Below, piece by piece: positions 17,071-54,948 of a DNA stretch of 64,000 nucleotides. Origin of the DNA: Convolutriloba macropyga (lineage: Eukaryota). A program made the position numbers and the translations under genes. The DNA is taken from assembly GCF_964194025.1 (NCBI RefSeq), contig NC_134471.1, positions 63,364,001 to 63,428,000 on the forward strand, in the 5' to 3' direction. The notes beneath the pieces are model-generated. The model saw only the letters and a program-made list of their open reading frames with translations, was not told where the DNA came from and searched no databases. Position 1 is the first letter of the stretch. Every line of letters starts with the position of its first letter.

Positions 17071-17074
17071 ATGC

Positions 17075-19500: not shown

Positions 19501-19563
19501 ATGGGTGATTCGAAGTATTCTGTATTAAAATTTGGATATATGATTGATAGGGGTATTCGAGAT

Positions 19564-22829: not shown

Positions 22830-23905
22830 CGCTCAAAAAGATGTAAGAGTGGGGCTTCAATGGAAGGATTTTCTAGGAAAATTCTAGGCAAAATCCTTGA
22901 ATCTATTTAGGCTGCAATGGGTTGCTAAGCGGGATAAAATGATGTAAGATTGATTGAGTATCGGAGAAATTACCCCCAAACTCGTACATCATTTTACCCC
23001 CCTTGACAGACCAAAAAGATTTAAGAGTGGGGTTATAATTTATCTTTGGCTCCCTAACTCCTGCATCGTTTCCCCCTCCCTGGCAGCCTGAAAAGATGTA
23101 AGAGTTTCGAACGGCGTTTTTTGTAAAAAAATTCAACTATTGCAGCCCACCTTTTACACTATTATACCTTGATTGCAGCCCAACTCTTACACCATTTTAC
23201 CCCACTCGCAACCCAACTCTTAGATAGAGTTACCCCTTCTTAAAAAGTTACACTCCAACACTTACATCACTTCACCATCTTGAAAACGCTAATACTATAC
23301 TGTACTATACTGTTTTAGCCCCCCATACTCGAGGACTGACAGCCTTGAAACCGCAACCTTGTAACCTCAACCTTTTCCCCTTAAACAACAGTCAATCAAT
23401 GCTCGTCCTACTCCTGACAGTCCATCTAAATGAACTATTCCCTATCAACAAATAACTCTCACTTTTACATCATTTTAACCCTTGTCAGCCCAATTCTCAC
23501 ATCAATTTAACCCATCTCTACAAATTACCCTGAAATCTAGCATCAATATAGACACCTGGCAGCCCAATTTTTACATCATTTTATCAAATTTCAACAAATT
23601 ACACCCCCTCCTCTCTGTTACACCATCTCACCCCACCCCCTCCCCCTGGCAGCCCAATTCTTACACCATTTTACTTCATCTGAACAATTCATCATCTCAC
23701 TCTTAAATCATTTTAGGCCCCTTGACAGCGCAACTCTTACATCATTTAACCCTTTCTGAATAAATTAACTCCTCATTCTTACACCATTGGCCCTCCTTGG
23801 CAGCCCAATTCCTTCGTAACTTTATCCCCTCTGAAAAAATTATCCCCTCACTTTTACAGAAGTTCATCCCCTCGGCAGCCCAATATTTACATCATTTTAC
23901 GCCCT
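22830..23905. repeat. Degenerate ~35-40 bp minisatellite/foldback element (GGCAGCCCAATTCTTACATCATTTTACCCC), with an inverted arm at the left; related copy at 24650-25240
   Basis: Motif recurs many times; reverse-complement AAAATGATGTAAGA/AAAGATGTAAGAGT at 22835-23105. Confidence 0.75.
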
Positions 23906-30693: not shown

Positions 30694-31579
30694 CCCGGGT
30701 CGAGGTGTCACCGCCATTCAACGCAAAATTATGTAAGGTAAGCGGTTAATGCGGATATTTTTGTAAGATAAGCGGTGAATGCGGTGAAATTACATAAATC
30801 AGGCGGTGAATGCGGTGAAAAAAAACTTTAGCGGCTTGTAGCGCTGAAATTACATAATTTAACCGCTGAATTTAGCGGTGAAATTACATAAATTCACCGC
30901 TTCGAAAAAAAGTGTCCAAATTATGTAAGATAAGCGGTGAATGCGGTGAAATTACATAAATTCACCGCTCAACTTAGTGGTGAACTTACATAAATTCACC
31001 GCTGAGAAAAAATTGTTAAAGATGTTTGAGATCAGCAAAGAATGCGGTGAAATTAATGGTGAGTGTGGGAGGAATTGTTAGATTTGCCTTCCCACTAAAA
31101 CTACCCCTTAATCTTACATCTTTTTGACACTTTTTCTAAGCGGTGAATTTATGTAATTTCACCACTAGAGTAAGCGGTGAATTTACAAAAATTCACCACA
31201 TTTCACCGCTAAAATATGTAATTTCACCGCTAAAAATTGCAAATCTTACAAAAATTCACCGCGCATGTTTTGCAGAAAGTAGAGTGAATTCGATTTATAT
31301 TCAAACAAAAAATAATAGAATTTAGTGAGAGATGGCGCAGTGGAAAAAGAAGTGGATGACATGCAGGAGGTGAGAGGTTCGGACCCTTGTAAGGGCGGTG
31401 AAATTACATATTTTAGCGGTGAATTGTGGTGAATTTTTGTAAGATCACCGCTTAGTCTAGCGGTGAACTTACATAATTTCACCGCATTTCACCGCAAAAT
31501 TATGTACGAAATTTGCGGTGAAAAAACTAACTTTTCACCGCTTATCTTACATATTTTTGCATTTCTTTCTCGACCCGGG
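30694..31579. mobile_element. Non-autonomous foldback element with CCCGGGTCGAG TIRs and internal GCGGTGAA/TTCACCGC arrays
   Basis: CCCGGGTCGAG at 30694 and CTCGACCCGGG ending at 31579. Apparently nested in a GCTGAAA/TTCAGCG-motif repeat (~30050-31670). Confidence 0.8.
31325..31395 (+). other. tRNA-like segment (A box/B box) inside the foldback element
   Basis: TGGCGCAGTGG (31333) and GGTTCGGACCC (31376); homologue at 55763-55833. Confidence 0.6.
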
Positions 31580-33300: not shown

Positions 33301-34485
33301 ACTGCAAAAAGATTGATTTTATTTCAGTCCAAAGAAGTAGAAGAAGAAAAAAAAGAAGAACTTTTTTCTTTGCTGACACTAAGCTACAAATTGACCAAAT
33401 TAGGAGAGAAATAGTGGCAAGGCTCAATAAGTCCTTGTCTATTCAAAAATCAAAAAATTTTATAAGTCAAAACGACAATAACCTTTCGAGTAAAGAAACT
33501 AAATACATTATTTTGGAACTGAATAGGGAGCCAATTGGATCTATCAACAGTGAACTTTGATCTCAACTGTTCTTTCTTTAATTAACATAAAAAAACGAAT
33601 TTTTTTTAAGGACGACTGATTACAATGCGATTTAATTCTGGATTGTAACAAGATTGGACCAAAACCAGCCTTGCTATCGTTGTTCTTTCAATAAAACCGA
33701 TCAGTTGCTTCGAGTGTTTTGAAGCTAGATAGTTTGTTAGTTAAAAGATCAAAAAAATGCTGCGTTTTTCATAATCATAGAGTAAAATTAGCAAAAATGG
33801 CTAAATCTTAATTCCAGACTATTTTCAATGGGAGTGGAAGTAGAACAAGCTCCCTTTGCGGTTTACAAAGTTTTTTTCCAGTTATTTTTGGGTGCGTAAT
33901 TCCGGCAAATAAAGTCAAAGTGGACAAAATGAGCTTTTATCGTTTGATGAAAAAGGCTGAATTTTGAAATTTTTAGCAAACCTTTTAGTCAAAAAATTAA
34001 ATCAAAGTAGTCATCAATACTTTTTTGTCTTTAAAAGTAAGATCAACAGTACTATTTTAACAATTTTTTAATATCTTAGCCAAAATTGACAAAAGTTCAG
34101 GCAAAATTGTCGGAATATATGAACAAAAGTAAGGCAAATTAATCTAACATTTAAAAAAATTGAAACCACGATAACTGGCTCTATAAAAACGAAATTTAAA
34201 AAACTCTTTTTTCCCATTTCCTACTACTGATGGGTTTTTTAATGATACTAAAACAATACTTATTTATTCTATATTCAAAGAGTTTTCCAATGATATAGCA
34301 CATGTCTTTATCGGAAAAATCAGGAAAAGTTACGGAAAGTGTGAACAAAAATGCCGGATTGATCAAAAGACTTTGGACCTCGATAACTCCTTGTAGAAAA
34401 TAAATTCAAAAAGAAATCTTTAATTCCATATTTTACGATGGACGAGCATTTTTAGTGATGCCTCTGATAACTCTCTATGATGAAT

Positions 34486-34646
34486 AGTAGTATCGTATAT
34501 ATACAGGAAGATCTGGGGGGGGGGGGGTAGATCCTTTCGAAATCCGTTTGGCAAGGGTGGATCCCTGATCCCTTAGGGGACATCTTTTATGTTAAGGAAG
34601 TGGTAATTGCGCTACATGTATTTGTTTGGCGGCTTATTGTTGGTAT
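34486..34646 (+). repeat. Polinton left TIR
   Basis: Reverse complement of 54797-54948 (GATCCCTGATCCCTTAGGGGA, GCTACATGTATTT, GGCGGCTTATTGTTGGTAT); has a poly-G tract not seen on the right. Confidence 0.95.
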
Positions 34647-34872
34647 TGCGCTATCGGAAAGCCATTCCAGTTTCAACATGTCTTTCTTACTTGTGTCAAA
34701 ACCTAGCAAAATAGATTTCAAATTAAGCTAAAATTATACGTTACAACATATTGAATAGAGTTATTATATAAACTGTTATAGATCAGAGAATTAAACACGC
34801 GCAAATGCGTCAAATTGAATAGAAAATAGCGTTTGTCTTGTTAATTAAGAGTCTGATTCTATCGCTTCATAA

Positions 34873-37800
34873 TCAAAAAAATTGGTTATACACTGAACGT
34901 TCTTCATCTATCTCATTTTCGTCGACAGTTTCATCAGAATCAATATCAGTCACTATAATTGCGGCGGTTCTTACAAAACAGAGGTCAGGAATTTCAGCGT
35001 TGTCAGTATTCGATTCGACTGTGGTTTCAACTTCTCTCTGGTTTTCATTTTCTTGCAATTCTCCAGAAGACCAGGAATTCAATGATTCATCATCGAAACT
35101 GTCGTCTTCGTCGGAGAAACGATTGTGGACAATATTTAGGTGATCAAACGGCAGTGTATCAATCCCGTTGTCAAGAATGTATGGTCGAAACCGTTACCGA
35201 CAATTTGTTAATGGTTACAGTATGGAGTTGGTGGCTGCTAGAAGGTATTCTATTATTTTGCGTGCAGATCAAACAACCAGAGGGGAGAGTTTCTTTGAAT
35301 CTGTCATGCGTCAGGTGTCATCGTGCTAACTTTTTGACGCCTTTTGCTGATTATTTCTCCCCGCTATCTAAATTAAAATTTTGAACGCTAGGAACAGTCC
35401 CAACTAACAAGCTGTATATTGATACGTGTGATGAAAACTAACTTACCAATTGCAACTACTGAGTAGAATTTTGGCTTGAAAGCACAAAATTCTTGATTAG
35501 GCACGCTGCCAAATTCGTCCGTAAACTTCAGGACGATAAATTTGCTCATTTTCGAGAAGAGCGGGTGCTGTGGTGGATAGTTGGAGAAGTCAAAATGTTG
35601 CAAAATATGAACTTTTTTTGCGTATATCATCATAAACGTCTATTGTAATGATTCGATACAGCAGTGAATCAGTATCCGAGTAGAGAACTTTGCAATCAAA
35701 ATTTGGCTTCATCAGGGTATAATGGAAATCGAACATGTGTAATTTAGCCAGAACAAGTACAAATGCCACTACAATAGTAGATTAGTTCCAATAAATCCGT
35801 TTTTTGCAATTTTAATTGGAGCCATGCTTTCTCCAAAGATTTGGAACGATTTAAAGAGAAAGTTTTGCGTTCTTTGTAGCACACATTGAGCATTTCGAAC
35901 AAGAACGACTTCATCAAGTTTCCTTTTTGACACTCATGTTTTTCCAAACAATGAATTTTTCAAGCCTTCATAGATCTTTTTGCAAAAAACAGTACTGGCA
36001 GCAATCCGGAGACTAGTATTTAGTTTCATGTAGGGTCGCATTCAGTTGGTTTGCTCAAATTTATTGCTCGATGAAGTTTTTTATGATTTTGAGCCCCATT
36101 GTATTTTAGAATTGTGCCAGCCGATAATGTAGCGTGTGGCGGTTTTTAGGCAAGAGCGTTTGATCGAGATTTGGCGCAGATAACTCTCCAGGTGAGTGCA
36201 TCTGTACCATCAAATTTTTCTGATCAAGAATGTTTGATTTTCAATTTGGATGGCGCCAGAGGGTAATCGTGATGAGCTACATGACTTTAGGGTGGATAAT
36301 CAATATCAATTTCAACGATGTATCCATGCTGTGCCGTTGACGAAATTTTGAGTACTTCATCGAGCGTGATGTGAGCATCTAGCGCAAAATCCTTCAAGGG
36401 CAAATAATCGTTCTGCATTACGCAGCCGAAAACGTTATTTGCGTCTAGCAGCAACGCATATGCAGACGGCTTAGACGCATCATAGTTCGGCAGAGGGCAG
36501 TGTTTGCTTGAAATAATTGTTGTTCACAAATTGAAGACACTCCTCCGCGCATCATGTTCTCTAGAATTTCAAGATATTCTCTCGCGGCGAGCGAATGCAC
36601 GTTGCGTTTGCATAAGTTGAGGAAAGCATCTCCTGATACATTTGATGCTCCAAAGTACTGTGCACAATCTAAGCCGTACGTTTCATAGCAGATATCTCTG
36701 AGAGCCTCAAAGACGCACGCCAGGAGCAAAGTGTCACAGTTTAGATATAGATCGTTGTACTTGCCGATGTTTTGACAATCAATTTTGGAAACACTATTTG
36801 AGCTTGATTGTACTCGGACAGCGAGTACAATCAAGCTTGATGTGATGTACTCGCTGTCCGAGTACAATCAAGCTCAAATAGTACTGTGCACAATCTAAGC
36901 CGTACGTGTCATAGCAGATATCTCTGAGAGCCTCAAAGACGCACGCCAGGAGCAAAGTGTCACAGTTTAGATATAGATCGTTGTACTTGCCGATGTTTTG
37001 ACAATCAATTTTGGAAACACTATTTGAGCTTCATTGTACTCGGACAGCGAGTACACTCATACAGAGAGTGTTCGCTCTCTGTCGGAGTGAACACTCCGAC
37101 AGAGAGTGATATATAGTTTTCTTCAATAGATGGTATAACTTCAAACATAGTTTCCGGCTCAAGACTTTTGCTTTTTGTCAGCCAGACTCTTTCTTCAAAA
37201 ATTTGTTCTGATGTAAGAATAACATTAAAAACTTTATCGGCAGAAGTTGAAAATCGCTTTTGGAGGAAGATTCATACTTAGAGCGTAGAATGTCAAAGCT
37301 ATTGTCAGGCAGATCAGCTACCAAGGACCAAAGAGTGATTAGGGCTTGAAGTTAAACGAGTCAATTAACCTTATGTATTTGAAGATAAGTGCTTGTTGTC
37401 CAGCCTCCGACTCAAAAATTTTTTTGATCACTCCGACAGAGACTGATATATTTTTTTCTTCAGTAGAAGGTATAACTTCAAACTTAGTTTCCGGCTCACA
37501 CTCTGCTAGTGCGATACATATATGATGAATATCATACTTTCTGATATTGTGACCAATCATTGGCGTAAAGTTAGATGTTCTGCAACAAGTATATGCGCTG
37601 CCCTTAGAAAATGGCCATCGTAGTGGCAATGGTCAAGACAAGCTTCCTCATCGTTTATTTCGTTTTCACAGATCCAACATCTCGTGTTAGCACATGCTAG
37701 AAAAGGTCTTCTATAGGGTCCGTAGAAAACTCGTTTTTGGTTTTATATGTCAGTACGCGCAAAGATTTTACAAATTCGTTCAAACAGTTGTCACCTCTTT

Positions 37801-39346
37801 CGAGTTCAAAATAGACAGGAGTTGCTTTACCGTAATCTATTGCTGCTATTGCATAACCACAAGGTCCATCTTTTTCAATTGCTACTGTTTAGGAAGTAGA
37901 GGTTGATGGTTGTGCTGTAGCATTAGGAACAAGGTAAGATTCTGTGTCAAAAAATAGAACAGTAGGAAGAAACCAGCGTTTTTTTCCATTTTCGGAAGTC
38001 TAGGGTGTTGCTTTCTCTTGGCGTTACAATTTCTGCTGCTGCATGTTCGCTGCATGTTTCAACATGGTTTTGATCAGTTTCTCTGTTTGTACATAATGAA
38101 AACAATTTCGAAATAAACACTGAGCTGCACGGTGCGCTATACCTTTGAGATAGTGCGACAAATTGTTCCGAATTTAAGATGAGAACGTAGTTATGGGCAT
38201 TCTTGTCGTGGAGGAGAAGAAGGTCCATTATGGAGGATTTGTTTGGCGCTTTTGAGACCTAAATCATCATCAAACGTGTTCCCTCGATTATTTAAACCAA
38301 ACAGATTCATGAAGACTAATACAATTTTGACATTTTGATTTGTTTAGCGTGAATATTTGATTTTTAGGGATTTTTTTCAACAAACAATTAACGTAAACAT
38401 TGACGCAAACGATGTTGACGTCTTCAAAGTACGGGATCCTTTTTATGGGCATCGGCAACTGATAGTCTCCGACTGGCTGTCGTTCCGCATTCTTGTACGT
38501 ATCTGGATTCGTCTTTTTAATTCTCGATCGACCCTCTGTCAGTAAATTGACTTGATTTTTGATGTGATAAGCAGCAACGAATTGATACAGGAAGCAGTTG
38601 TGGTCAAAATGATTTCATATGTTGAGCAATGAACGGCATCCGTTCAGGAATCCAGGTAGAGCTATATATGAGGATGCATGCACGGAGGCACAGGCGGCTA
38701 TCTTGATTTCCAGTCCGTTTATTTTGCGTAGAAATCATCCACTGTTTTGTGACGAAAACATGAAGAGACTACTCAACATCTTACTCAACATCTTGAAAAA
38801 ATCTTTGTTTGAGAGTCCGTCCAAGTACACTGTAGTCACTTCAGAGCTAGCAGAGATTTCGATAGCTTGTTCCTCGTTGTCACTTTCGTTACTTTCTTTG
38901 TAGAGATCCAAAGACACAACAAACTGAACTTTTTCGGCTGCATTCGAAAATTTGCTGTTTATAAGGTCAGTTATGATGTCTCTATTGTTCAGCAGGAACG
39001 CCATGAGATCTTGGTCGTCCTCCGTTCCATCAATAGTGAAAACTTGAAGTGCACCTTGAACGGCGGACTCTGTTGATCTTCTGCTTGTTTCACTAGTTCT
39101 CGAGGGCAGTCCATGTTGATCTTTATGTGCGTGGCAAAGCGAGCAGCAGAATCAAAGCCAATGTAGCAGTAGAGACAACAGTGTACTAACGGGTTATGTC
39201 GGTTTCCGAAATGTCGTTCGAGAGATCGCAGATCTCTTGAAGTGAAATCACAGTGGTCACAGCGGACACTGGCACCCTGAGTTCATCCAGGTGACAATTG
39301 CGGTTGGTGCGAAATGTGAACTTGGCTTTACAAAATTTGAACTCAT
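34873..39346 (-). pseudogene. Protein-primed family B DNA polymerase (pPolB) with N-terminal C2H2-like fingers, endonuclease-VII-like insert and acidic tail
   Basis: SSYIALP..NCFLY, HNYVLI, CWICENE..LDHCHYDGHFLRAAH, HNIRKYD, LIDSFNF, YNDLYLNCDTLLLACVFE, RGG, LDANNVFG, LYSDTDSL, KFTDE..EFCAFKPKFYS, AKGV, YILDNGIDTLPFDH. Confidence 0.95.
35368..35446 (-). other. 79-bp GT-AG spliceosomal intron in pPolB
   Basis: Donor ATTG|GTAAGT, acceptor TTTTAATTTAG|AT. Removal joins KPKFYSVVAI to DSGEK*SAKGVKK. Confidence 0.85.
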
Positions 39347-41129
39347 AGCTGAATCAATTTGAAGATAAAATGGTTTTGAGTTCGAGTTAAACCAAACCTT
39401 CAACTCTCTCAAAAAAAACAACGTCCTGATTGGTTCAATTTGAAAAAATGTTCAAAACGAAATTTCCAGGGACAATTTTTTTGCAATAAGTTAAGTATAG
39501 GATTGCACAGGTCTTAAAAATATCCTTGCGCAAGGTTCACAGCCCAATCAGTTAAATTAGGAGATCGATGAAGCTTTAGAAACAACATTTTTTAAAATCC
39601 CGTATGAGGTTGTTAAAAGTTTTTTGCAAATTTGGTCTGTGCTTCATGCAATTTATATCATTCGAAACTGAGGGCGTAGATCAATCATGTTGTTTGCAAA
39701 TCCATTTGCATATATGATTGGTATTCTGGCCAAAGAGGGCTACATTCATGTCTTATGCAAAGTTGAAGAAGTAGCAATGTTTTGCCGTAATAGCCGGAGA
39801 GACATATGCGTAATTTCAATGCAACAAATGCGTAATTTATATGCAATGACTTGTTTTAGCAAGCCCTATATTGTTAAATAGTTTTATTGATGTTCTAGTG
39901 CAACTGAAAATCTATTTGTATAGGTAAGAAAAATATTGTAAAGGTAATCTTGTAAAGGTAAGAAAAATGTTTTTTAAAATTGGAAAAAAAAAGATTTTTA
40001 AAATTGGAAAAAAATGCTTTTCATACTTGGCGAAAAGCTAACTTCATCATGCTTATGATCAAAAATTCAGAGCTTGAGATTTTAGCAGATAATTTACAAA
40101 ACCTCGTGAGCACGATTTTTCAAAACGTCTGGCAGCCACATGTTTCCAATTGAAAACAGGTGTTTGCAAAAACCGGGTTCCCGGGGTTTTTTGGCCTTGA
40201 TGATCATAACCTTTTATTTCTGTTACAAGGCCGTAAGAAAAACGCATTCTCAGCAGAACAACCAAATGATTGATTTTTTTCAATCTTTTCAGTTCTTTTT
40301 TTTTTCAATTTTTTTGTTTTTTTTTAAGTAACACCTAAAAAACCACAGGGATAACATTGAAACGTTAACAAATTTCAAATTATCTGAAAGGAAAAAAAAA
40401 ATTTTTCCAAATTTCATAGCTTTCACAATATTTTTGCCTTTTAACAAAAACCTTTTTTTCTGTAACAGATATGAAAAGTTTTATGGAAACCAAAAATTTA
40501 GAGCGTCTTGTTTTACATAACATGAGATACTTATCAGTAGTTTCCTCATCAGTCTTCCAATTGTAAGGGGATAAGTTAAAGACAAAAATATATGAGTGAA
40601 CATAGATTTTGTTCTCTGTGACCCGGAAATTGTGCTCCTCCAAAATTTTTGTTTGGAGGTTTTGGTGGAAAGCTGTGCGCTCACCAAAATGTCTTCCTAC
40701 AGATGTAAAATTTTTTTGTTTTTATTGTTTTTTTTTGTTTTTCTTCAAAAAATTGCCAATTTTTCGAGAAATTTGTTCAAAAAGTGATTGAAAATTGGCA
40801 AAGACAACACTCCTCAATAGAGTTGTCACAGAGTCCTGTTTTTGTAGACCATACTGTGCTCTATAAAACCATGTTTATACATGTTTCTTCATTTTGCGAT
40901 TATAATCACCTTTTACAGGTTTTCAAAAAATTTTTTTTCAACTTCGCTTTAAGCCGCCGATTGTTTTTCAATTTTCAAAAATCAAACTAATAATTGTTAA
41001 TTTTTAATTTTGTACACAAGAAACTAGTAATCCCCCTTACAAAATCGATACAAATTAAGCCTAGGAATTGACTCAACATTTTTATATAAAACAATTTGTG
41101 ATTACGGTAATAAATAATTTTTCACACCA

Positions 41130-41575
41130 TCAAACTGAGAGTTTGAATTTCCTTTCAGAAATTCTATCAAAGAATTTTTCATAGGGACCAATGGACCTTC
41201 TTTTTCTCGGCGCAAGGGTAACTTTTGGAGTCTCGGAGTTTTCAGGTGTTGTCTCTGTTCTTCTGTATTCATTTTCTGTTGTTGTTTCATGCATGTTTTC
41301 CAAAATTGTTTTTTGTGTCTTTGAACCCGAGCAAGACGGTGTTCTGAAGTCGGTCGCAGACAAATTATGTATCAATTGACTTGCAGTTTGCAGTGAGACG
41401 AAATTCCATGCAAGCTTCTGCTCTGTAATGGGGGAAAACAGATACGGTGAGCTCTCGGGTCCCAATGTCATTGGCAGTGTCACAATGTCATAGGGGTAAA
41501 GAAGATGTGTTAACGACAAAGGTGAAACGAACCCGCCTGAAGTGATAAAGGTTCCACCACAATCTTCATTCATCT
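41130..41575 (-). CDS. Polinton hypothetical protein (likely start MNEDCGG within the 275-aa ORF)
   Basis: Open frame with T/E/K-rich tail and PRKRR basic patch; no known domain recognised. Confidence 0.4.
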
Positions 41576-42278
41576 TTTTCTCCGGCCGCGTTGCAACGAA
41601 GTAAACGAAGATTTTAAGTATCAAGAAGTGCTCAAGCTTTGTCCAATTCTCCTTTTTCTTGTTTGTTCTTTTTTGTTGGATAAACAATTTTGGAATGCTT
41701 TGAAAAGATGATAAGCGAATTGAATGTTTCTGATATTTCAACAAGAAAAAGGTTTGAAAGTATTTTAAGCGAGAGGATAATTGTTCACAAATTTGATTTC
41801 TGCTCAGACAGTGGATATTCAACAAATTTAAGGAGTTGCTGTTTCGAAACTGAAATGAAATAAAATGTAGCGGGGAATTGACCCCCATATAGTTTATGTA
41901 AGTTTGCAATGGTTCCATTGGCCTCCTTTGTCTGCCCCCGGCACACTCAAAGACCAACTATTTTGGCCATGATTTTTGATGGAAAACATATATGCTTTAT
42001 TGCACCAGCCTTAAGACTGCACATGTGTTGACAAAATTTGATTGAACGCCAGGTGTTTTTCATTAATTTACAAAAATTATCAAGTCGGATAAGTAGACCA
42101 CACACGTGTAACCCACGCTTGCCGCGCGCCTGAGGTGGGGAGCACGTTTTTTGTAAATTAAACCAGTTTTTGTTACGAGGGAAATACCACACCTAACACC
42201 TATTCTCCTCTTATCCGTCAGCTTCTTTGAAACTCATGGCGTTAAGGACTATTACCAGTGTGTATTTGTGTTTGGATA

Positions 42279-42312
42279 TGTGTGAGTTTGTGTGTGTGTG
42301 TGTGTGTGTGTG
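42279..42312. repeat. (TG)n microsatellite
   Basis: Direct read. Confidence 0.9.
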
Positions 42313-43114
42313 CAGTAACAAGGCTATGTCAAAAATTTTCTCGTGTTGTTCTAATTAAATCTCGGCGATTTATGAGGAAAATACACGGACCTCTGCAGAC
42401 ATTGAGATATGTGAATTACGTGAAACACCCATATCAGTACCGTTTCGGAATGAATACTGAATATTTGAAAAAAATTAACTTTTCAATTTTTAATTTGTGC
42501 TGAACAACCGGATTATATGATGTAAAAAGTTATGCTGTGTGTTCACTTTGAGAATCCTATTTAAACTTTGAAAACTAATCATTACCATGTTTTGGTGGAA
42601 ACATCAGACGTGACAAAGTCTTCAGACAAATCAAAGTTTTAAAAGTTTTTATACAGTGCCTTGTCTCTACACACCTTTCAAGATTTTTTTGACAATTCAA
42701 TTACCCTAAAGCTTAATGGAGAAATTTTTCAAAAGCTTAATTTGGCGCGCGAAAAAAACAAAAATTTGACTTCCACTTATACAGAAACTGTTCCCAAACT
42801 TCTCTAAGGTAGCTGCTAATCAAAAGGTCAACAACAGCAACAACAGCAGCAACGTGACATTGAAAGGAGGCAATCAACGACGACTACAGCAAGGAAGCAG
42901 CTCACTGTTTCAACTCCGTCAAAAGTCATTGCAAAATTGTATTACAAACCCAATAACCAAAAAACTTGTACTGATAGCTTTGAAAGTTAATCTCTAAAGA
43001 GATTTCAAAATAATCTTGTCTGGGCCACCATCAGGTGCTGTCTGCCAAATTATGAACATATTTTTGAGCGGATATGGTAATTTGCTTGCTTTTTGAATTT
43101 GATGTTTTGCTTGT

Positions 43115-46100
43115 ACTTCAGCTGCCGGAATTTGCCCGGTGTTCTCTTTGTGTGAATAACTTTTGCATGTCAACCAAATTGCTTTCGCATCTTTGTTATG
43201 AGAAAATTCAGTTTCAATGAAATTTTTGTGAGCATATTTTCCATTTGACTTTGAAGTTTTTAATCCATTGGCAGATACTAAGCAGTCAGAAAAGAGCGAA
43301 TGAAAAACATTTTTGCAGAATTAGGGGCGTCTGTTTTGGTTACTTTTGCTGCAGCTCTTTTGTCATATTTCAAATAGGCTTCAGAAGCTTGACCTATCTT
43401 GCATTGATTTCCAGGTTTTTTTTGTAGGGCAATAAAACTATTCTTTCTCCAGCCACCTCAAATTCAAGCATGGGTCCGTTAGGGCTTTAAACCGGCCCTA
43501 CTTTTTCACAAAAAATTTCCATCAAAAGGTACAAGAAGCTCAGATTTTTCAAATAAATCCCTACAATTCTTTATACAAACATTTTGTATAATGTTAGTTT
43601 CTGTCCATGCGGATCAGCAAAAATTTGATTGCCATTCTTCCTACACAAAAAGTTCCAATGTGCTCCAATAGAACCAGATTTCGATACATTCACATTTATG
43701 AGTTTGTTCTGTGATAAATTCAAGGGAACATTATCAGCTGCAAATACACAAAAAAAATTGTATTTTAGAAGTTTACATGCTTGAACCAGGCTGTTTATTT
43801 TGTCTTCATCCATCAGTTTGCCAGAACATGATTTTTCAAAACTTTCCGAGCCAATTTGATGAAAATAAGGCTCGCATTCTCGTCATTATTGAAAATTTCT
43901 ATATTACATGCCTAGGCAGCTGAGAACTTGAGTTCAAAAGAAATTGAACAATTGTTGATTTAAGGGTGAATAAAATCATGCGACGCCTGCTGAGTGCTAG
44001 TGAGATCAAACACCATAAGAAATTCGCTTGGCTACTCAGACAATTTCATTCCATGACCATTGTCAATATAGGCTAAGTCTGACATTGTGTTGAAATATAA
44101 GCGTTTTTCACCAGTTGTATTTTTTGGACTGTCAGCAACAGGAAGGCCATTTTAGGTAAATACACATCTGCTATAGATTGAATTTAGGGAAGTGGAAACG
44201 ATTAAGTTGTTTGCTTCCTGAAATTTTTTCTTTTGTGTTAAGGCATATAGCAAGACGTTGAAATGGCTGCGTACTGGAAACGTCCTCTTGTTTCCAGATT
44301 TGCAAGCCAGTGGAAGCAAGAAACGTTTTAGTTATGGTCTCCAAATGTGGATAGGACGCTGGACTTGATAGTAAAGTTTTTTCAATCGCAGAAACCACGT
44401 CATCAATAAACGTCAGTTTTCTCACATACAAATTAGCTTCTATAATTTTTTTGTGAGATATTGCAGCAGCGTCGGAAATTGTGACAAAATCATCTATTGA
44501 TCATCCAAAAGAAATTCTTAGCGTCACACCACTCAAAAGATGTTGATCGCAAGTGAAAAAAGCCAACAGCTACTTCTCCAAAAATCATATTCGGCAGAGT
44601 GTCTAACGAATGCTTTTCGTCAATTAACTTCAGCTGCCGGAATTTGCCCGGTGTTCTCTTTGTGTGAAAAACTTTGGCATGCCAACCAAGTTGCTTTCGC
44701 ATCTTTGTTATGAGAAAATTCAGTTTCAAGGAAACTTTTGTGTTCATATTTTCCATTTGACTTTGAAGTTTTTAATCCATTTGCAAATACAAAGCAGTCA
44801 GAAAAGAGCGAATGAAAACATTTTTGCAGAATTAGGGGCGTCTGTTTTGGTTACTTTTGCTGCAGCTCCTTTGTCATATTTCAAATAGGCTTCAGAAGCT
44901 TGAACTACCTTGCATTGATTTCCAAGAATTTTTTTTGTAGGGCAATAAAACTATTCTTTCTCCAGCCACCTCAAATTCAAGCATGGGTCCGTTAGGGCTT
45001 TAAACCGGCCGTACTTTTTCACAAAAATTTCCATCAAAAGTTACAAGAAGCGCAGATTTTTCAAATAAATCCCTACAATTCATTATACAAATATTTTGTA
45101 TAATGTTAGTTTCTGTCCATGCGATCAACAAAAAATTGATTGCCATTCTTCCTACACAAAAGGTTCCAATATGCTCCAATAGAACCAGATTTCGATACAT
45201 TCACAATTATGAATTTGTTCTGTGATAAATTCAAGGAAACAATATCAGCTGCAAATACACAAAAAAATTTGTATTTAAGAAGTTTACATGCTTGAACCAG
45301 GCTGTTTATTTTGTCTTCATCCATCAGCTTGCCAGAACATGATTTTTCAAAACTTTCCGAGCCAAATGGATGAAAATAAGGCTCGCTTTCTCGTCATTAT
45401 TGAAAATTTCTATATTACATGGCAAGGCAGCTGAGAACTTGATTTCAAAAGAAATTGAAGAATTGTTAATTTCAGGGTGAATAAAATCATGCGAAGCCTG
45501 CTGAGTGCTAGCAAGATCAGACACTTTAAAAAAAACGCTCGGCTACTCAGACAATTTAATTCCATGACCACTGTCAATATAGGCTAAATCTGACGTTGTG
45601 TTGAAATATAAGCCTTTTCATCAGTTGTATTTATTTGGTCTGTCAGCAACAGGAAGGCCATTTTAGGTAAATACACATCTGCTCTAGATTGAATTTAGGG
45701 AAGTGGAAAGGATTAAGTTGTTTGCTTCCTGAAATTTTTTCTTTTGTGTTAAGGCATATAGCAAGACGTTGAAATGGCTGCGTACTGGAAACGTCCTCTT
45801 GTTTCCAGATTTGCAAGCCAGTGGAAGCAAGAAACGTTTTAGTTATGGTCTCCAAATGTGGATAGGACGCTGGACTTGATAGTAAAGTTTTTTCAATCGC
45901 AGAAACCACGTCATCAATAAACGTCAGTTTTCTCACATACAAATTAGCTTCTATAATTTTTTTGTGAGATATTGCAGCAGCGTCGGAAATTGTGACAAAA
46001 TCATCTATTGATCATCCAAAAGAAGTTCTTAGCGTCACACCACTCAAAAGATGTTGATCGCAAGTGAAAAAAGCCAACAGCTACTTCTCCAAAAAAAGCA

Positions 46101-49100
46101 TATTCGGCAGAGTGTCTAACGAATGCTTTTCGTCTATTAACTTCAGCTGCTGGAATTTGCCCGGTGTTCTCTTTGTGTGAAAAACTTTGGCATGCCAACC
46201 AAGTTGCTTTCGCATCTTTGTTATGAGAAAATTCAGTTTCAAGGAAACTTTTGTGTTCATATTTTCCATTTGACTTTGAAATTTTTAATCCATTTGCAAA
46301 TACAAAGCAGTCAGAAAAGAGCGAATGAAAACATTTTTGCAGAATTAGGGGCGTCTGTTTTGGTTACTTTTGCTGCAGCTCCTTTGTCATATTTCAAATA
46401 GGCTTCAGAAGCTTGAACTACCTTGCATTGATTTCCAAGAATTTTTTTTGTAGGGCAATAAAACTATTCTTTCTCCAGCCACCTAAAATTCAAGCATGGG
46501 TCCGTTAGGGCTTTAAACCGGGCGTACTTATTCAAAAAAATTTCCATCAAAAGTTACAAGAAGCGCAGATTTTTCAAATAAATCCCTACAATTCATTATA
46601 CAAATATTTTGTATAATGTTAGTTTCTGTCCATGCGGATCAACAAAAAATTGATTGCCATTCTTCCTACACAAAAGGTTCCAATATGCTCCAATAGAACC
46701 AGATTTCGATACACTCACAATTATGAATTTGTTCTGTGATAAATTCAAGGAAACAATATCAGCTGCAAATACACAAAAAAATTTGTATTTAAGAAGTTTA
46801 CATGCTTGAACCAGGCTGTTTATTTTGTCTTCATCCATCAGCTTGCCAGAACATGATTTTTCAAAACTTTCCGAGCCAAATGGATGAAAATAAGGCTCGC
46901 TTTCTCGTCATTATTGAAAATTTCTATATTACATGGCAAGGCAGCTGAGAACTTGAGTTCATAAGAAATTGAAGAATTGTTAATTTCAGGGTGAATAAAA
47001 TCATGCGAAGCCTGCTGAGTGCTAGCAAGATCAGACACTTTAAAAAAATCGCTCGGCTACTCAGACAATTTAATTCCATGACCACTGTCAATATAGGCTA
47101 AATCTGACGTTGTGTTGAAATATAAGCCTTTTCATCAGTTGTATTTATTTGGTCTGTCAGCAACAGGAAGGCCATTTTAGGTAAATACACATCTGCTCCA
47201 GATTGAATTTAGGGAAGTGGAAAGGATTGAGTTGTTTGCTTCCTGAAATTTTTTCAATTGTGTTAAGGCATATTGCAAGACGTTGAAATGGCTGCGTACT
47301 GGAAACGTCCTCTTGTTTCCAGATTTGCAAGCCAGTGGAAGCAAGAAACGTTTTAGTTATGGTCTCCAAATGTGGATAGGACGCTGGACTTGATAGTAAA
47401 GTTTTTTCAATCGCAGAAACCACGTCATCAAAAAACGTCAGTTTTCTCACATACAAATTAGCTTCTATAATTTTTTTGTGAGATATTGCAGCAGCGTCGG
47501 AAATTGTGACAAAATCATCTATTGATCATCCAAAAGAAATTCTTAGCGTCACACCACTCAAAAGATGTTGATCGCAAGTGAAAAAAGCCAACAGCTACTT
47601 CTCCAAAAAAGCATATTCGGCAGAGTCTCTAACGAATGCTTTTCGTCTATTAACTTCAGCTGCCGGAATTTGCCCGGTGTTCTCTTTGTGTGAAAAACTT
47701 TGGCATGCCAACCAAGTTGCTTTCGCATCTTTGTTATGAGAAAATTCAGTTTCAAGGAAACTTTTGTGTTCATATTTTCCATTTGACTTTGAAATTTTTA
47801 ATCCATTTGCAAATACAAAGCAGTCAGAAAAGAGTGAATGAAAACATTTTTGCAGAATTAGGGGCGTCTGTTTTGGTTACTTTTGCTGCAGCTCCTTTGT
47901 CATATTTCAAATAGGCTTCAGAAGCTTGAACTACCTTGCATTGATTTCCAAGAATTTTTTTTTGTAGGGCAATAAAACTATTCTTTCTCCAGCCACCTCA
48001 AATTCAAGCATGGGTCCGTTAGGGCTTTAAACCGGCCGTACTTTTTCACAAAAATTTCCATCAAAAGTTACAAGAAGCGCAGATTTTCAAATAAATCCCT
48101 ACAATTCATTATACAAAAATTTTGTATAATGTTAGTTTCTGTCCATGCGGATCAACAAAAAATTGATTGCCATTCTTCCTACACAAAAGGTTCCAATATG
48201 CTCCAATAGAACCAGATTTCGATACATTCACAATTATGAATTTGTTCTGTGATAATTTCAAGGAAACAATATCAGCTGCAAATACACAAAAAAATTTGTA
48301 TTTAAGAAGTTTACATGCTTGAACCAGGCTGTTTATTTTGTCTTCATCCATCAGCTTGCCAGAACATGATTTTTCAAAACTTTCCGAGCCAAATGGATGA
48401 AAATAAGGCTCGCTTTCTCGTCATTATTGAAAATTTCTATATTACATGGCAAGGCAGCTGAGAACTTGAGTTCAAAAGAAATTGAAGAATTGTTAATTTC
48501 AGGGTGAATAAAATCATTCGAAGCCTGCTGAGTGCTAGCAAGATCAGACACTTTAATAAAATCGCTCGGCTACTCAGACAATTTAATTCCATGACCACTG
48601 TCAATATAGGCTAAATCTGACGTTGTGTTGAAATATAAGCCTTTTCATCAGTTGTATTTATTTGGTCTGTCAGCAACAGGAAGGCCATTTTAGGTCAATA
48701 CACATCTGCTCCAGATTGAATTTAGGGAAGTGGAAAGAATTGAGTTGTTTGCTTCCTAAAAATTCTTCATTTGTGTTAAGGCATATAGCAAGACGTCGAA
48801 TTGGCTCCGTATTGAAAACATCCTCTTGTTTCCAGCTTTGCAAGCCAGTGGAAGCAAGAAACGTTTTTTTATTGGTCTCCAAATGTGGATAGGACGCTGG
48901 ACTTGATAGTAAAGTTTTTTCAATCGCAGAAACCACGTCATCGTTCAACGTCATTTTTAACACATACAGATTGACTTCTATGATTTATTTTGTAGGATTT
49001 TGCAGCTTCGTCGAAAATTACGACAAAATCATCTATTGATCATCCAAAAAAAAATTCACAGCGTCACACCACTCAAAAGATGTCGATCTCATGTAAAAAG

Positions 49101-49620
49101 AATCAACAGCTACTTCTCAATAAAAAGTATATTTGGCAGAGTCTCTAACAAATGCTTTCCGTCTGTTAACTTCAGCTGCTGGAATTTGCCAGGTGTTCTC
49201 TTTGTGTGAATAACTTTGGCATGGCAACCAAGTTTCTTTCACATCTTTGTTTTGAGAAAACTCAGTTTCATTGAAACTTTTGTTAGCATTACCTCCAATT
49301 GACTTTGAAATTTTTAATCCATTGGCAGATACTGTGCAGTCAGAAAAGAGCGAATGTAAAACATTATTGCAGAAGTATGGGCGTCTGTTTTAATTACGTT
49401 TGCTGCAGCTCCAATGTCATATTTCAAATCGCCTTCAGAAGCTTGAACTATCTTGCAATTGATTTCCAGGAAATTTTTTTTTGTAAGGCAATAAAATTTT
49501 TTCTTTCTCCAGCCATCTCAAATTCAAGCATGGGTCTGTTAGGGCTGTAAACCGGTCCTATTTTTGACAATAATTTCCATCAAAAATAAAGAAGCGCTGG
49601 TTTTTCGAATAAATCCAGGG
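43115..49620 (-). repeat. ~1513-bp tandem array (~4.3 units) of major capsid gene plus 5' half of the protease
   Basis: MDEDKINSLVQACKLLKY ORFs start at 43813, 45324, 46838 and 48351; MCP fragments recur with the same spacing. Confidence 0.96.
43571..43813 (-). pseudogene. Adenain-like cysteine protease, 5' half (only copy retaining the catalytic-His motif GAHW)
   Basis: VFAAD..P....INVN....GAHW....FADPHG. The C-terminal Q/C motif is absent. Copies at 45106-45324, 46596-46838 and 48109-48351 read GAYW. Confidence 0.85.
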
Positions 49621-49648
49621 AACTATTTGTTACCTCTTTCGCTAACAT
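48351..49648 (-). pseudogene. Polinton major capsid protein (double jelly-roll), copy with the original start
   Basis: MLAKEVTNSSLDLFEKP..GPVYSPNRPMLEFE; LSSPASYPHLE; PIRRLAIC; FHFPKFNL; SISFELKFSAALP. ~430 codons; stop overlaps the protease ATG (TGATG). Confidence 0.88.
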
Positions 49649-49659
49649 AATACCGGTAA

Positions 49660-50100
49660 ACTTTATCTTTAGCAAAGAAATCCGACCGACTTCTTGTTGG
49701 CTGTTTATTTTTTTAAATGAATGCTTGTCTCATAATAGTTATTTTTCTAGCTTTTGAACTAGAAAGTTTTGATTGTATCCGATTCATTCGGTTTTGTCGT
49801 CTCATTGGCCGTGCTTAGGCGCCTCTTTATTGCTTTTTGACTGTATTCGAAAAAGTGTTTTTCATCGCCTGCTTTGCGGATTTATTTTTTGCTGACAACA
49901 TCCACTAACTCTGGTACACTTTGTAAGAGAAGTTCTTTTCCGACAGGTTTTGCTGCGGGTAGAATGAATTTTCGTGCAAGCGGTAAGGCGATTCGACCTA
50001 TGCAACTTGCTAAAACTCCAAAGCCGATTCCGATTTGTTTACAGTGTCCAGAAAAATAAAGCAACGAAGATGCTTGATTGGTGTATTACAATTCCATTGT
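49660..50100 (-). pseudogene. Conserved Polinton small core-like protein (QxGxG amphipathic N-terminus, basic tail)
   Basis: KQIGIGFGVLASCIGRIALPLARKFILPAAKPVGKELL, then an R/K-rich tail; lies between the minor and major capsid genes. Confidence 0.6.
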
Positions 50101-50101
50101 T

Positions 50102-50890
50102 TTACTCAACAAATTTTTTAAATTGTAACGTCAATATCACATTACCAGTCCCTGAAAAGGTGACTTGATGACCTGTTTCGGTACGTAGCTCTATGGAAAA
50201 TGATTGAGTCGTATATGAAAGATAGTCCAACTTATAGTCCAACTTTGAACAAACTATTCTATTTGTTGGTTCAAGTTCACCCAAGCTACCGTTTTTCAGA
50301 CGTTGTTTTGAATCAATGACACGTAATAACGGCAACTTAGCATCATTAAAATACTGATACTCAATAATGTTTGTGTAAAAGAATATTAGGTGCTTTTCGC
50401 GCACAGATCAGCTTGGAATTCTCCATAATAAGCTTTTGTCTCATCGATCTTCATTAATTTATTTGTTAAAGCTGTATTTATTTTTTACCTATTTGTACAC
50501 CGTGTCTATCTGGAAATCCTGTAAAACCCACAATACTGGGTACTTCTTCACTAGGGAAAAACATTCCCTCAATTTTACCAAAATTTTTTTTCCTATTTTC
50601 CAGTACTCTTGCTTTTGGGAAACAAAAAATAGGGTAGTCGAATTGTTTGCTTGATAGTAAATGCAAGTTGAGCATTATGATTATATTTCATCAAATCTCT
50701 ATTCACAACTTGCTGAATTTTGGTCGAAAAAACAATTTCACTTAGAGCTACCCTCTAGTTTCCAGATAGTTGAATTTTTATCGTTGAAAAAGTTTCTGAA
50801 CAAAGCTAGTGTAAATTGACCAAAGATCTCCATCGAAGCGCTAGAAATAACATGTACCGTAAACTCATCTTCGAGTCGTTTACTTCCCAT
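50102..50890 (-). pseudogene. Polinton minor capsid (penton) protein
   Basis: EFTVHVISSASMEIF...LSGN*RVALSEIVF; IFFYTNIIEYQ...LPLLRVI; SIELRTETG..F.GTG.VILTLQFKK. Confidence 0.85.
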
Positions 50891-50899
50891 TTTTAGAGG

Positions 50900-51860
50900 A
50901 GTCTCTCAGACTAGTTGAAGCTCTGGTTGGTAGAACTTACCCTGGATAACTTCTTCAAACGCAGCACATAAGAGAATACGTGCGAGGATGCAATGTTGGG
51001 ATCGATGCGATTTCAAATACTTCGCTAGTAAACGACTCTTTGTAACGCTTCCCGAACGTCTCTTCTTTATTCATTATGAGCACAAAAACACCAATAAAGA
51101 GTTCAATTTTGAGAAGTTGATGTATTCGCAATTAAGGACACAAGTCTTGGAATGTCATTCTCTGTGACTTTGTTCGTAGCGAGTATCATCATTCGATTTA
51201 CTCTAGCATTGATTGTTTTAATAAACGCGTCCAATTTGTCTAGATATCAATAACTCCGCTTTTCTTCTAATTATCTAGACATTATTTTTTCAAAGAGCGT
51301 ATGTTTCTTTCCGCAAAAGCAGACTTTTTTCAATTAACGTACTGTATGAATGAAGTCCGCATTCAGTTTATAGGGCTTTGAAGGCACCTTGGAATTCTGT
51401 ACCATCATCCACCCAAATTTTTTCAGGTTGATTAAACTTGATCAACTTTTTGAATGCATGTGCTGTCTTTGTGACATACGTTTTCAGTGGCTCAACCCTG
51501 AGATACCTTGACAAACAGTCGACAGCAACAAGCAGATAATTTACACCACGGTTTTATTTTGCAAGTTTATCAACATACGCTAGATCTACGGACCAGATCG
51601 CATTTATGTCGTTAACAATAACCTTAAACTTTAAGTCTTGGAAACTTGAGGCGACGTGAACGGTATTTATTGAAAGATAGTTTCGTTTCCAGATACAAAT
51701 TGATTTTCATCATTGATAATTTACTCAAATTTTGCAGTCTCGTTGCGTTTCCAAATGACACAGGACCGTTTAAATTGAGCTGGTCAAGTTTTGGCTCATC
51801 GTCAATAGAGATCCCAGGATTTTCTACGCGTCTCTTCCGCTGTCTTCTCTTTAGTTGCAT
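50900..51860 (-). pseudogene. Polinton retroviral-like (rve) integrase
   Basis: WSVDLA, YLLVAVDCLSRY, PEKIWVDDGTEF, AFAERNIRSLK, FTSEVFEI, GKFYQPEL. Confidence 0.93.
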
Positions 51861-52149
51861 CGACTCTTGGCTTTGCGTTTTTTGCCTTCGGTTTAGATCG
51901 TCTTCTTTTTTGCTCTTTTTTTTGTTTTTTGCTTCGGTTGTTTTGATGCAGTTTGCTTTTCATCTGCACTGTAAAACTGGTCTAAAATTTTTTTTTGCTT
52001 GAAAATTATAAAACAGGTCGGATTTCAAGTTCACTCAAGATTTAGGAATTTTTTGACATGTCAAATTTTTGGTGGATTACTGTAGATTGTACAAAAAACC
52101 TGTTACATCTACTCCTTGACACTCGTCGTCAATGTGCAGAATGTTAGTT

Positions 52150-52887
52150 GTTTAAGGAACCCTCTGTGCTTGTTTAAGAAACTTTCTGAAATTGCTCTCG
52201 GACAGCTCGAGCATGTGCTTTAGCATACATAAATCTTTCTCTCTCATCTGTCAAAGTAGAGATAACCGCTTTGGAGGAGATGAAAAATTGTTGGAGCTGG
52301 TTGTACATTATTTGAAAAATAACGTGAAGATTCCGATGTTGTTTTTGGATCTAAGTCAATAAATAAGTGTCCTAAAGGTTGTTTTGTTGCAAATTCATAG
52401 CTTTCCTTCAAAAAATTTGCAGTTTCCATTTAGTTTCCAACATAGCTGATCTGCTGTATATCTCTAGGTGAGTTGAACAAAATGATATGAGTTGTGTTCA
52501 AGTCAATCGTTCGCGACCATTTACTCTTATGAAATAAGCTATGGTTAACATAAACCACACTAATGTTTCTATGGCGTCCAGCTGTTGCAAAACTTTAAAA
52601 TTCTTTGTCATTAAAAATTACTTCACAGGAATCGCCAAATACGAGCAGACAATTTTCCAGCTGAGAAATGAATTCAAATCCAAAAAACTTAATAAAAAAA
52701 TGTTCACTTTACGCTCTATTGTGCTGAAATTTGGCTGTTCGTTTCGATAGAAGTAGTTAATAGAACTAAAGTTGGGATAGAAAATGTTTCTCAATAACAT
52801 TTGAAATATAAGTTCTGTTTTTCCACAACACCACTGACCACAAACAGCGATAAAAAGCCTATCTTCAGTGAATATTATTTTGTTCAT
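52150..52887 (-). pseudogene. A32/FtsK-like DNA packaging ATPase
   Basis: Walker A variant VCGQWCCGKT; GRH; SRTIDLNTTHIILFNSPRD; YEFATKQPLGHLFIDLDPKT. Confidence 0.9.
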
Positions 52888-52899
52888 AGCTTTAGATTT

Positions 52900-53185
52900 G
52901 GAATAGCGTATCTAACTGTGCTTGAAAGCAATTAAAAGCAAAATGTTGATTCTGTACAATCAAGTTGGGAAAACACAAGTTTGATTAAAGACACTACCTT
53001 AAAAAAACTATTATTAACATTTGAGTTAAATAAACGACTTCGGAACCTGGTAGCCGGGAATTAAAAAACTTCCACGAACGCCTCTCTTGATTTTCCTCAT
53101 CAAAAACTAAAATACTCAAACCTCCTCCGTTAGCGGAGTCACTCTGGTCTTCTTTAGCACTCATTTGAAAATATGTTATTTGCAA
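52900..53185 (-). pseudogene. Small hydrophobic (putative membrane) Polinton protein
   Basis: SEVVYLTQMLIIVFL, followed by a second hydrophobic stretch in the adjacent frame; just upstream of the ATPase. Confidence 0.45.
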
Positions 53186-53211
53186 AAATGAATTAACACC
53201 CAGGTTTTTAG

Positions 53212-53866
53212 TTAAAATTGCTTTTTTGATTGTCTCTCTTTCAATCCGAAAGAATTCATAAGCAGAATATCTAGAGTTTTTGTCGTTTTTTTTTTGTAAG
53301 CCGCTTTAAAGTTTGCCTGCATGCAGTAACCACTTCCATAGTAGACAACAGACTCTACGTTGCCTTCACTGACAAAAATTTTATTTTCATCAGGGAGATT
53401 TTCATCGTCCAGAGCTACTTGAACTGGTGATGGCCCATTGGGCGTAGGTAAAAGGGTTAGTTTCAGTTTTCTAACTTTCTGTTGTAACAACATAGTAAAT
53501 TTGAAAGAATTCAAGTAATGAAAGATATTTCGTCAGCGTCTCAATTTCCTTAGTGTTGCAGAGAATCTGTTGTTTTCGCAGAATATTGTGTCCACGTGAT
53601 TCTATTTTTTCTTCTTTTAAATGAATCAATATCAAGTGATTATCATTCGTTATGAAACTGCATACTGTCAAACTTGGAGTTAAATTCACTTGAAGAATTG
53701 ACGGAGCTGCCTTCTCCACTCGACGGCTCATTGGATGGCAGGGAGATCCAATAGAAATACAACTGTGCTTTCCTTTTAGCACGATGTTTCCTTTTTTGTT
53801 TTTCTGGTAGGTAGAAAGAGTGCAGATTGCAAGTAATATTATCAATTGGCGATTTAATATCTTCAA
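53212..53866 (-). pseudogene. Polinton hypothetical protein (two frameshifted fragments)
   Basis: Overlapping ORFs 53471-53866 and 53212-53514. Confidence 0.4.
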
Positions 53867-54226
53867 TTTTCGGGCATAGAAGAGTTTACAAATTTACTAC
53901 CTCTTTCTGCAAGAGATTTTGAAGTGATTCTGTTTTCTCTTTTTCTTTGTCTTGAAATTTCCATAACGGAAACCGAAGTTTAATGGCGACAAAAGTTTGG
54001 GATAGAAACCAGTAAGAATAAGTACCGCTGTTCAAAGACAAACCTTGTAAAAACTTAGTAACTCACTTATGAGATCTCCTATCACAAGCGGAAAGTGAGT
54101 TATAGGAAACTGGCGGAAGAAAAAGATTTGTATACGAAAAATTATTTGAACACAGCGATAACTCTTTTTTAAAAAACCAGTTTTTTGTAACGAAACCTTC
54201 CAAATCTTATAACACTATTTCTTGTT

Positions 54227-54637
54227 TCAGTATTCCAACAGAGTGAACAAAAAGTTTTTGAACGTCTTCACAAAAAGAGCCAATCCCGTGTGGTGGCCAA
54301 AATACTCGTTTGTAATTGAACAATGTAACACATAGGTGCATCCAGGCTTTTTATGACTGTCCTCTGCTATAAATCCCAATGCGTCGTGGAGTATTGAATG
54401 AAGTCGAAGTTTTTTGAACGATTTGCAGCAGTTGTCCAGCGACGAATTATCAATTCCAATTACACCGCCATACGGTCTCAGCTTCAGTGTTGCCTCCAAA
54501 TCAATATCAGGATCAAGGTATTGACCAGCAGCTAGAAAATACAGAAACTTTTCACCGTACTTTGGATAATTGTACCTATTCTCCAGGTAAATCTCATGAA
54601 TAGTTCTTAGATCAATGGTTGCTATCGTTTTGGCCAT
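54227..54637 (-). CDS. Putative phospholipase A2-like (HD motif) protein, intact 136-aa ORF
   Basis: RPYGGVIG..NSSLD...LHSILHDALGFI....KPGCTY...FGHHTG: a Gly-rich loop followed by an HD dyad. Confidence 0.55.
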   Translation of the reverse strand: MAKTIATIDLRTIHEIYLENRYNYPKYGEKFLYFLAAGQYLDPDIDLEATLKLRPYGGVIGIDNSSLDNCCKSFKKLRLHSILHDALGFIAEDSHKKPGCTYVLHCSITNEYFGHHTGLALFVKTFKNFLFTLLEY

Positions 54638-54796
54638 CCTTTCGTCAATTTTTATTCTGGCAAAATGAATCCAAATCTTACCTCCTAAGGTTGACCACTT
54701 GAGCTCACAGCCAAAGTATGTTCACACAAATACATGTGGCAAAAATACCATTCTTAACATAAAGAATCTCCCCTCTCTCGCACTCGGGAAATATAT

Positions 54797-54948
54797 ATAC
54801 CAACAATAAGCCGCCAGAAAAATACATGTAGCAAAATTACCACTTTCTTAACATAAAATATCTCCCCTAAGGGATCAGGGATCCTCCTCTGCCGAAAGGA
54901 TCTCGAAAGGATCCCAGCGCGATCTTCTTGTGTATTTACGATACTACT
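54797..54948 (-). repeat. Polinton right TIR (partial direct duplicate just inside, ~54728-54775)
   Basis: Ends CGATACTACT, followed by TSD ATGAAT. Confidence 0.95.

Follow-up and report, generated by a model that had tools for sequence, protein, structure and literature searches.

Inherited spliceosomal-type introns in the DNA polymerase gene of Polintons from Convolutriloba macropyga

The protein-primed DNA polymerase gene of Polintons in the acoel Convolutriloba macropyga is interrupted by introns at two fixed positions, designated sites A and B. At both sites the position, the phase and the splice signals are inherited across lineages of the element, while the intron sequences themselves have turned over, and in some lineages one or the other intron is cleanly absent. 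The reading that we favor, with a probability of about four in five, is that these are two old introns that were gained long ago, are constitutively spliced by the host and have been precisely lost in some branches, and that they are passengers as opposed to a switch.

Intron B was initially noticed in a window of 64,000 nucleotides (the whole stretch of C. macropyga DNA that was analysed), which contains a decayed Polinton/Maverick insertion of 20,463 bp on the minus strand (34486..54948) with ~86% identity to sister copies. The insertion is bounded by terminal inverted repeats, one starting with AGTAGT (34486..34646) and the other ending in ACTACT (54797..54948), and a perfect 6-bp target-site duplication, ATGAAT, is present at both ends (34480-34485 and 54949-54954). 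Its assignment to the Polintons is based on these AGTAGT-type repeats and the 6-bp duplication, together with polymerase, integrase, ATPase and protease genes. A decayed module at 43068..53100 (minus strand, limits approximate) matches the ATPase, integrase, capsid-like and protease genes of the sister copies. In the latter, Pfam matches above the cut-off were obtained for rve (E 1.4e-8), Pox_A32 (E 1.7e-5) and Peptidase_C5 (E 1.1e-6), and the window copy is ~86% identical to these stretches. The capsid-like frame of 459 aa had no match in Pfam or in a PDB sequence search; a feature search linked it at 0.98 to clusters with 24-30% DJR-like_dom members, a recognition that is below the tool's threshold and is a lead only. 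Within the capsid-like gene, a 1.5-kb stretch is repeated head-to-tail 4-5 times (about 43068-49600), with inner units that are 95-100% identical.

Other repeats in the window include a satellite array at 87-5750, in which alternating units of 174 and 185 bp form a 359-bp dimer (~14 dimers), a 42-bp tandem array at 6311-6941 (~10 copies, with an inverted copy just upstream), and clusters of a degenerate 75-bp repeat with short inverted repeats at 23204-25250 and 30200-31500. Decayed pol pieces of an LTR retrotransposon are located on the minus strand at 15720-19900 (reverse transcriptase, RNase H, rve integrase and a weak Tf2-like SH3 match). Frames at 7400-14700 have the same strand skew as these pieces and no Pfam match.

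The polymerase gene of the window copy, read along the minus strand, begins with a first-exon region (38392..39370) that encodes a C2H2 zinc-finger N-terminus in sister copies and whose upper limit is approximate, as it was projected from a sister copy. It is followed by intron A (38290..38391), by a middle exon (35447..38289) carrying an endonuclease-VII-like stretch and the exonuclease and polymerase motifs up to KxY, by intron B (35368..35446), and by a last exon (34845..35367) that extends from the AKG motif to an acidic tail. Decay is extensive. Within its matched pieces the middle exon has ~20 stops; its frame shifts several times, and 226 bp are tandemly duplicated at 36647-37059. In the last exon, stop codons occur before SAKG and after KKLAR, and the frame shifts between NKLS and YILDNG. 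The window copy is a pseudogene, a dead relic, which was overlooked in the initial annotation, and the intron question therefore had to be decided on other copies.

Intron B of the window copy is 79 nt long (79 mod 3 = 1), starts with GTAAGT and ends with TTTTAATTTAG, the acceptor reading TTTAG. It is located between the KxY and AKG motifs, where it splits the codon directly after KPKFYSVVAI behind its first base (phase 1). GTRAGT has a frequency of ~3.3e-4 per base within the window. The initial annotation had described a 79-bp GTAAGT segment that breaks the pPolB frame after KPKFYSVVAI, and this was confirmed, with the downstream motifs sitting in another frame. Its statement that splicing restores these motifs holds for the exon motifs, which are in the other frame as described, but the window copy has no open frame even when spliced. 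The window family also offers a phase-0 pair of splice sites, which was rejected: it yields 15 codons, its donor (GTTTTC) is poor and a pyrimidine tract is lacking. A self-splicing group I or group II intron was also rejected: an Rfam scan of 34400-40000 gave 0 matches, and the length of only 79-85 nt compares with the hundreds of bases that would be expected.

A DNA search of the genome returned 126 candidates, of which 40 were scored and the best 30, including the window copy, were read. All 30 copies of the family (lineage W) carry the segment, 85 nt long in 29 of them and 79 nt in the window copy, with a GTAAGT donor in 30/30 and an AG acceptor in 29/30. A private insertion is thereby ruled out, and conservation of the splice sites and position in other family copies, which had been proposed as a test, is borne out. 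When intron B is read unspliced, a stop follows after 17-21 codons in 30/30 copies. On either side of it the frame is open in many copies: for 175 codons 3′ of the acceptor in 23/30, and over all 584 codons 5′ of the donor in 10/30. Variation among the 29 sister copies is ~0.6% and is equal in intron and exon, indicating that the family multiplied recently with intron B already present; since equal divergence of this kind reflects decay after insertion, it carries no information on selection. In one sister copy (L087), a tandem duplication of ~2.2 kb spans the start of the polymerase gene (about 750-4840).

The position of intron B is also kept in other Polinton lineages of the genome. Among 20 weaker matches sampled across identity tiers, 4 are old copies of the window family, 15 belong to lineages B, C and D, and 1 reads straight through. 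Lineages B, C and D are 52-59% identical to the window family in the last exon, and extra DNA was present at site B in the 15 matches. In total, an intron interrupts the codon of site B in four other lineages (B, B2, C and D), in phase 1, with GT/GC..AG ends and lengths of 110-683 nt. In lineage B2 a 110-115-nt intron was found in 10/12 loci, the other 2 lacking an anchor pair. The ten introns delimited at this site (79-683 nt) are all in phase 1, with a GT or GC donor and an AG acceptor. Donors across the intron-B lineages read GTAAGT, GCAAGT, GTGAAT or GTAGTT, and acceptors, with a pyrimidine tract and AG, read TTTAG or TTTCAG. The introns (GC 0.11-0.36) are AT-richer than their flanks (0.33-0.53). 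Intron cores of lineages W, B, C and D are unalignable, with z scores of -2.7 to 3.5 against shuffles; the 150-nt flanks are alignable (z 2.5-13.8). The donor is located 31 or 34 nt from the motif lysine, depending on the lineage, so the homology of site B is exact only to within one codon, in a variable loop.

Lineages E and E2 are without intron B. The intron-B-less group is large, with 151 matches, whose full-length members fall mostly in these two identity tiers; a spacing of 16 codons at site B was read in 23/30 loci, 7 being unmatched by the pattern. Intron-bearing lineages have an exon-only spacing of 16 or 17 codons, and the same values were found in 82/102 scorable outside homologues (150 in total). 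A scan of viral contigs found no related loci. A metagenome scan found 5, of which 3 were read: one is in frame through site B, one has normal spacing and one stops short.

Several individual loci of lineage B differ in detail. Among the scored copies with the short intron (L061-L067), 5/6 have a GC-AG donor and 1 has GT, such that both alternate within one lineage. The 156-nt intron of L067 is stop-free, and in-frame read-through would be possible. In L069 (and L076) ~680 nt of low-complexity, T/A-rich DNA (GC 0.11) take the place of the intron body between intact ends, and the flanks are still 74-86% identical to those of other lineage B copies.

On sequence criteria, intron B has the properties of a U2-type intron, including the GT/GC donor consensus, an acceptor with pyrimidine tract and AG, and removal that gives a colinear reading frame. 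A branch-like word, CTAAT, was noted 24 nt upstream of an acceptor. Intron B is real and well supported as an inherited, old, spliceosomal-type intron of a protein-primed polymerase gene, in keeping with the initial proposal of a spliceosomal intron in a Polinton DNA polymerase, and its position is kept across copies and lineages. The interruption might instead be an insertion that shifts the frame, or a site of recoding that is translated without being spliced out, as could be argued from the one 156-nt copy, a stop-free multiple of three, and from a 20-residue in-frame insert at site B in two outside proteins. The lengths at site B, however, represent all three remainders mod 3, and in every case the ends are spliceosomal and the frame fits exactly; in addition, the family multiplied recently (~0.6% variation, 29 copies) with the segment present, and Rfam is blank in the region. 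We find a non-intron explanation barely credible.

A second intron, intron A, is located ~2.8 kb upstream of intron B in the window and 2.6 kb upstream in sister copies. It is 102 nt long, is in phase 2 and follows a V-N-V-F motif. Both of its splice sites are decayed in the window copy, and its ends are GTAAGT..ACAG in 5/5 sister copies. Elsewhere its length is 140 nt in lineage D, 144-146 nt in E, 184-190 nt in E2 and 127 nt in B2, with phase 2 throughout. Intron A is cleanly absent from lineage B (3/3) and lineage C (2/2). In one D-type copy the site is deleted, and in one E2 stretch the intron was not located. Thus lineages W, D and B2 have both introns, E and E2 have only intron A, and B and C have only intron B, and each of the seven lineages read in the genome has at least one of the two. 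A mini-exon leader was sought upstream of the start codon, with no clear case. Candidate introns in the ATPase, integrase, penton-like, capsid-like and protease genes were rejected, as their breaks vary between copies and every one of these genes is uninterrupted in one or more of the five copies read.

Pfam and PDB sequence searches of the family's own pieces gave no polymerase match and only weak zinc-finger and endonuclease-VII matches below the cut-off. The predicted structure of an intron-B-less relative (500 aa, pLDDT 96) had phi29 DNA polymerase as its first match (E 1.6e-14), and this model puts site B directly behind the invariant KxY residues, where a turn connects two strands. In an alignment of 92 sequences, one invariant and eight nearly invariant columns fall within the last exon. 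From the known layout of the protein-primed polymerase family we take this exon to be the thumb side, so that an unspliced polymerase product is unlikely to work. These data support the view that lineages with intron B would need splicing for a complete enzyme. The earlier suggestion that replicase expression needs host splicing likewise appears correct for the intron-bearing lineages, in which a stop within 17-21 codons is predicted to remove the conserved C-terminal part.

Two NCBI proteins assigned to C. macropyga match loci of the genome, at 99.7% over 336 aa and at 100% over 66 aa, which makes this acoel very probably the host. One of the two, a gene model that belongs to lineage B2 (XP_075254812.1), joins the intron A and intron B sites exactly as predicted; it is an automated model and additionally skips another stretch of a broken copy. 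For the window stretch, 5 sequencing runs from 2 studies were listed, all of unrecorded kind and none marked as RNA. Contigs of 4 runs, which are possibly all DNA, were compared with a sister copy and have no bearing on splicing: among 15 joints listed of 38, none is at intron A or B, and one contig of a run labelled organism B (possibly DNA) is continuous across intron B at low depth.

The intron status of outside relatives was read from protein ends alone. On this basis, five relatives that belong to this wider group each read as one frame of 1,351-1,467 aa through sites A and B. Two doubly intronless outside relatives were tested and had no close copy among the scored candidates in the C. 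macropyga genome, which argues that other hosts carry doubly intronless elements. In several relatives from other assemblies the protein ends shortly after site B or contains 20 additional residues at this point, which is what intron retention would produce. The insert of two such proteins (P0298 and P0305) is Phe/Leu-rich and resembles a retained intron of multiple-of-three length.

In two quick trees all elements formed one clade (support 100 and 99), within which intron-bearing and intronless rows are interleaved. Lineage B is sister to B2 (support 95), and many inner forks are weak; trees of this kind leave the choice between loss and repeated gain unsettled. Repeated gain at the same favorable sites, either proto-splice sites or the targets of an intron-generating transposon, could account for intron bodies that are unrelated between lineages and for intronless groups scattered over the tree, and introners have been published inside dinoflagellate eupolintoviral elements (PMC12166617, in part). 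What single inheritance followed by loss explains better is that, at each of two separate sites, five lineages carry an intron in an identical phase, and that lineage B, without intron A, is sister to B2, which has it, with identical spacing. A free introner was rejected as well, since all 40 scored matches in a search with the intron bodies look like family copies (a lower bound), 33 of the 40 coinciding with places found by the polymerase-DNA search or adjoining last-exon matches. Together, these observations make repeated gain very unlikely.

In the favored reading of two old passenger introns, the Polinton would be transcribed in the host nucleus and the host spliceosome would constitutively remove the intron or introns, giving a polymerase of ~1,360 residues. 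Unspliced RNA would lead to an early end, with the C-terminal (thumb-side) part missing. The introns would have been gained long ago and then copied along at every transposition, and several branches would have lost them precisely, most simply when the element recombined with a reverse-transcribed mRNA or with a relative free of introns. They would be tolerated passengers, with no switch.

The initial annotation had raised the possibility of a regulatory switch, which is unsupported: intron B is absent from a large sister lineage, and there are outside relatives without both introns. The introns could still be kept by selection if splicing gates or boosts polymerase output, for example by regulated retention or by escape from host silencing of intronless transcripts. 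All seven lineages in the genome have A, B or both, the other core genes are single frames in at least one of the five copies read, the splice sites have outlasted the turnover of the intron bodies, and retention at either site would end translation early. Conserved splice sites, however, are expected of any intron in a needed gene, and with two introns and few losses it is unremarkable that no double loss occurred among seven lineages. Furthermore, the five outside relatives with single frames of 1,351-1,467 aa over both sites have neither intron. Maintenance by selection is, in our view, unlikely. It is likewise doubtful that the polymerase alone among the core genes is under splicing control, with at least one intron selected to gate or license the replicase and the precise losses recording passage through reverse-transcribed RNA.

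Host genes offer a limited comparison (L100-L102, L142). Neither RPS8 (two copies) nor NSA2 shows a break in its coding region; PGK matched in two pieces around one intron, which likewise has GT..TTTCAG ends. Judged on these three genes only, the host may be intron-poor.

In adenovirus, the E2B polymerase has a short coding leader exon, and splicing adds leaders to a polymerase frame that is otherwise unbroken, whereas in the acoel polymerase short introns cut conserved coding regions. Common to both, according to parts of PMC7851563, is a related protein-primed polymerase expressed via host nuclear splicing. The acoel element also resembles vertebrate Mavericks/Polintons, as characterized in sections of Barreat and Katzourakis 2021 (PMC8097293), in its (AGT)2//(ACT)2 ends, terminal inverted repeats, 6-bp target duplication and 15-20 kb size, and in its polymerase, integrase, ATPase, protease and capsid-like genes. 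Those sections report that no introns were seen in intact vertebrate elements; intronless core genes are a descriptive trait there from which the acoel element departs, with two inherited introns in its polymerase. Nematode Mavericks/Polintons, in portions of two reports (10.1101/2022.07.12.499685; 10.1101/2023.08.22.554363), share the core gene set and the protein-primed polymerase motifs including KxY. In the excerpted text of Widen et al. (10.1101/2022.07.12.499685), core genes are called intronless and introns are restricted to captured cargo genes. The initial statement that Polinton core genes are usually single ORFs agrees with these descriptions (PMC8097293; 10.1101/2022.07.12.499685, each in part).

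Adintoviruses (Starrett et al. 2021, PMC8502044, in part) are similarly animal-associated and integrating, with PolB, rve integrase, ATPase and capsid genes; in the main text no word begins with 'splic' and 'intron' occurs a single time. Of their two PolB classes, Alpha and Beta, the window family resembles the Beta (group 1) class in that its pieces have no PF03175 match, with the limit that precomputed PF03175 hits exist in some close relatives. The dinoflagellate introners (PMC12166617, in part) are also spliceosomal-type introns within polinton-like elements, but they are mobile and mostly inserted after integration in single elements, whereas the acoel introns are inherited through lineages at two fixed positions. 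In excerpts of Bellas et al. (PMC10120064), endogenous viruses are stated to contain no introns, and across the excerpted text of PMC10175614, PMC12220804, PMC11296320 and PMC10120064 the sole introns reported are group I introns in cryptophyte elements. Two inherited introns in a Polinton polymerase are therefore unusual, as such genes are described as intron-free. The literature searched yielded no account of spliceosomal introns that are inherited within the polymerase gene of an animal Polinton; Repbase entries and supplements could mention some.

The introns also affect how such elements are counted. The longest polymerase open frame of the window family is 885-886 codons in 3/5 copies and shorter in the other two, and the survey of Jeong et al., in its excerpted text (10.1101/2023.08.22.554363), set a minimum length of 900 aa for polymerase ORFs. 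ORF-based surveys can thus miss such polymerases, as was anticipated in the initial annotation. Where 'intact' is taken to mean one long ORF, a recently expanded family would be classed as broken, and intron-bearing Polintons are probably undercounted for this reason.

Inherited introns of this kind would mean that the replicase is expressed through the host nuclear machinery. With many copies and a mixed presence and absence of introns at two sites, a single genome may offer a tractable setting for intron gain and precise loss in a DNA mobile element.
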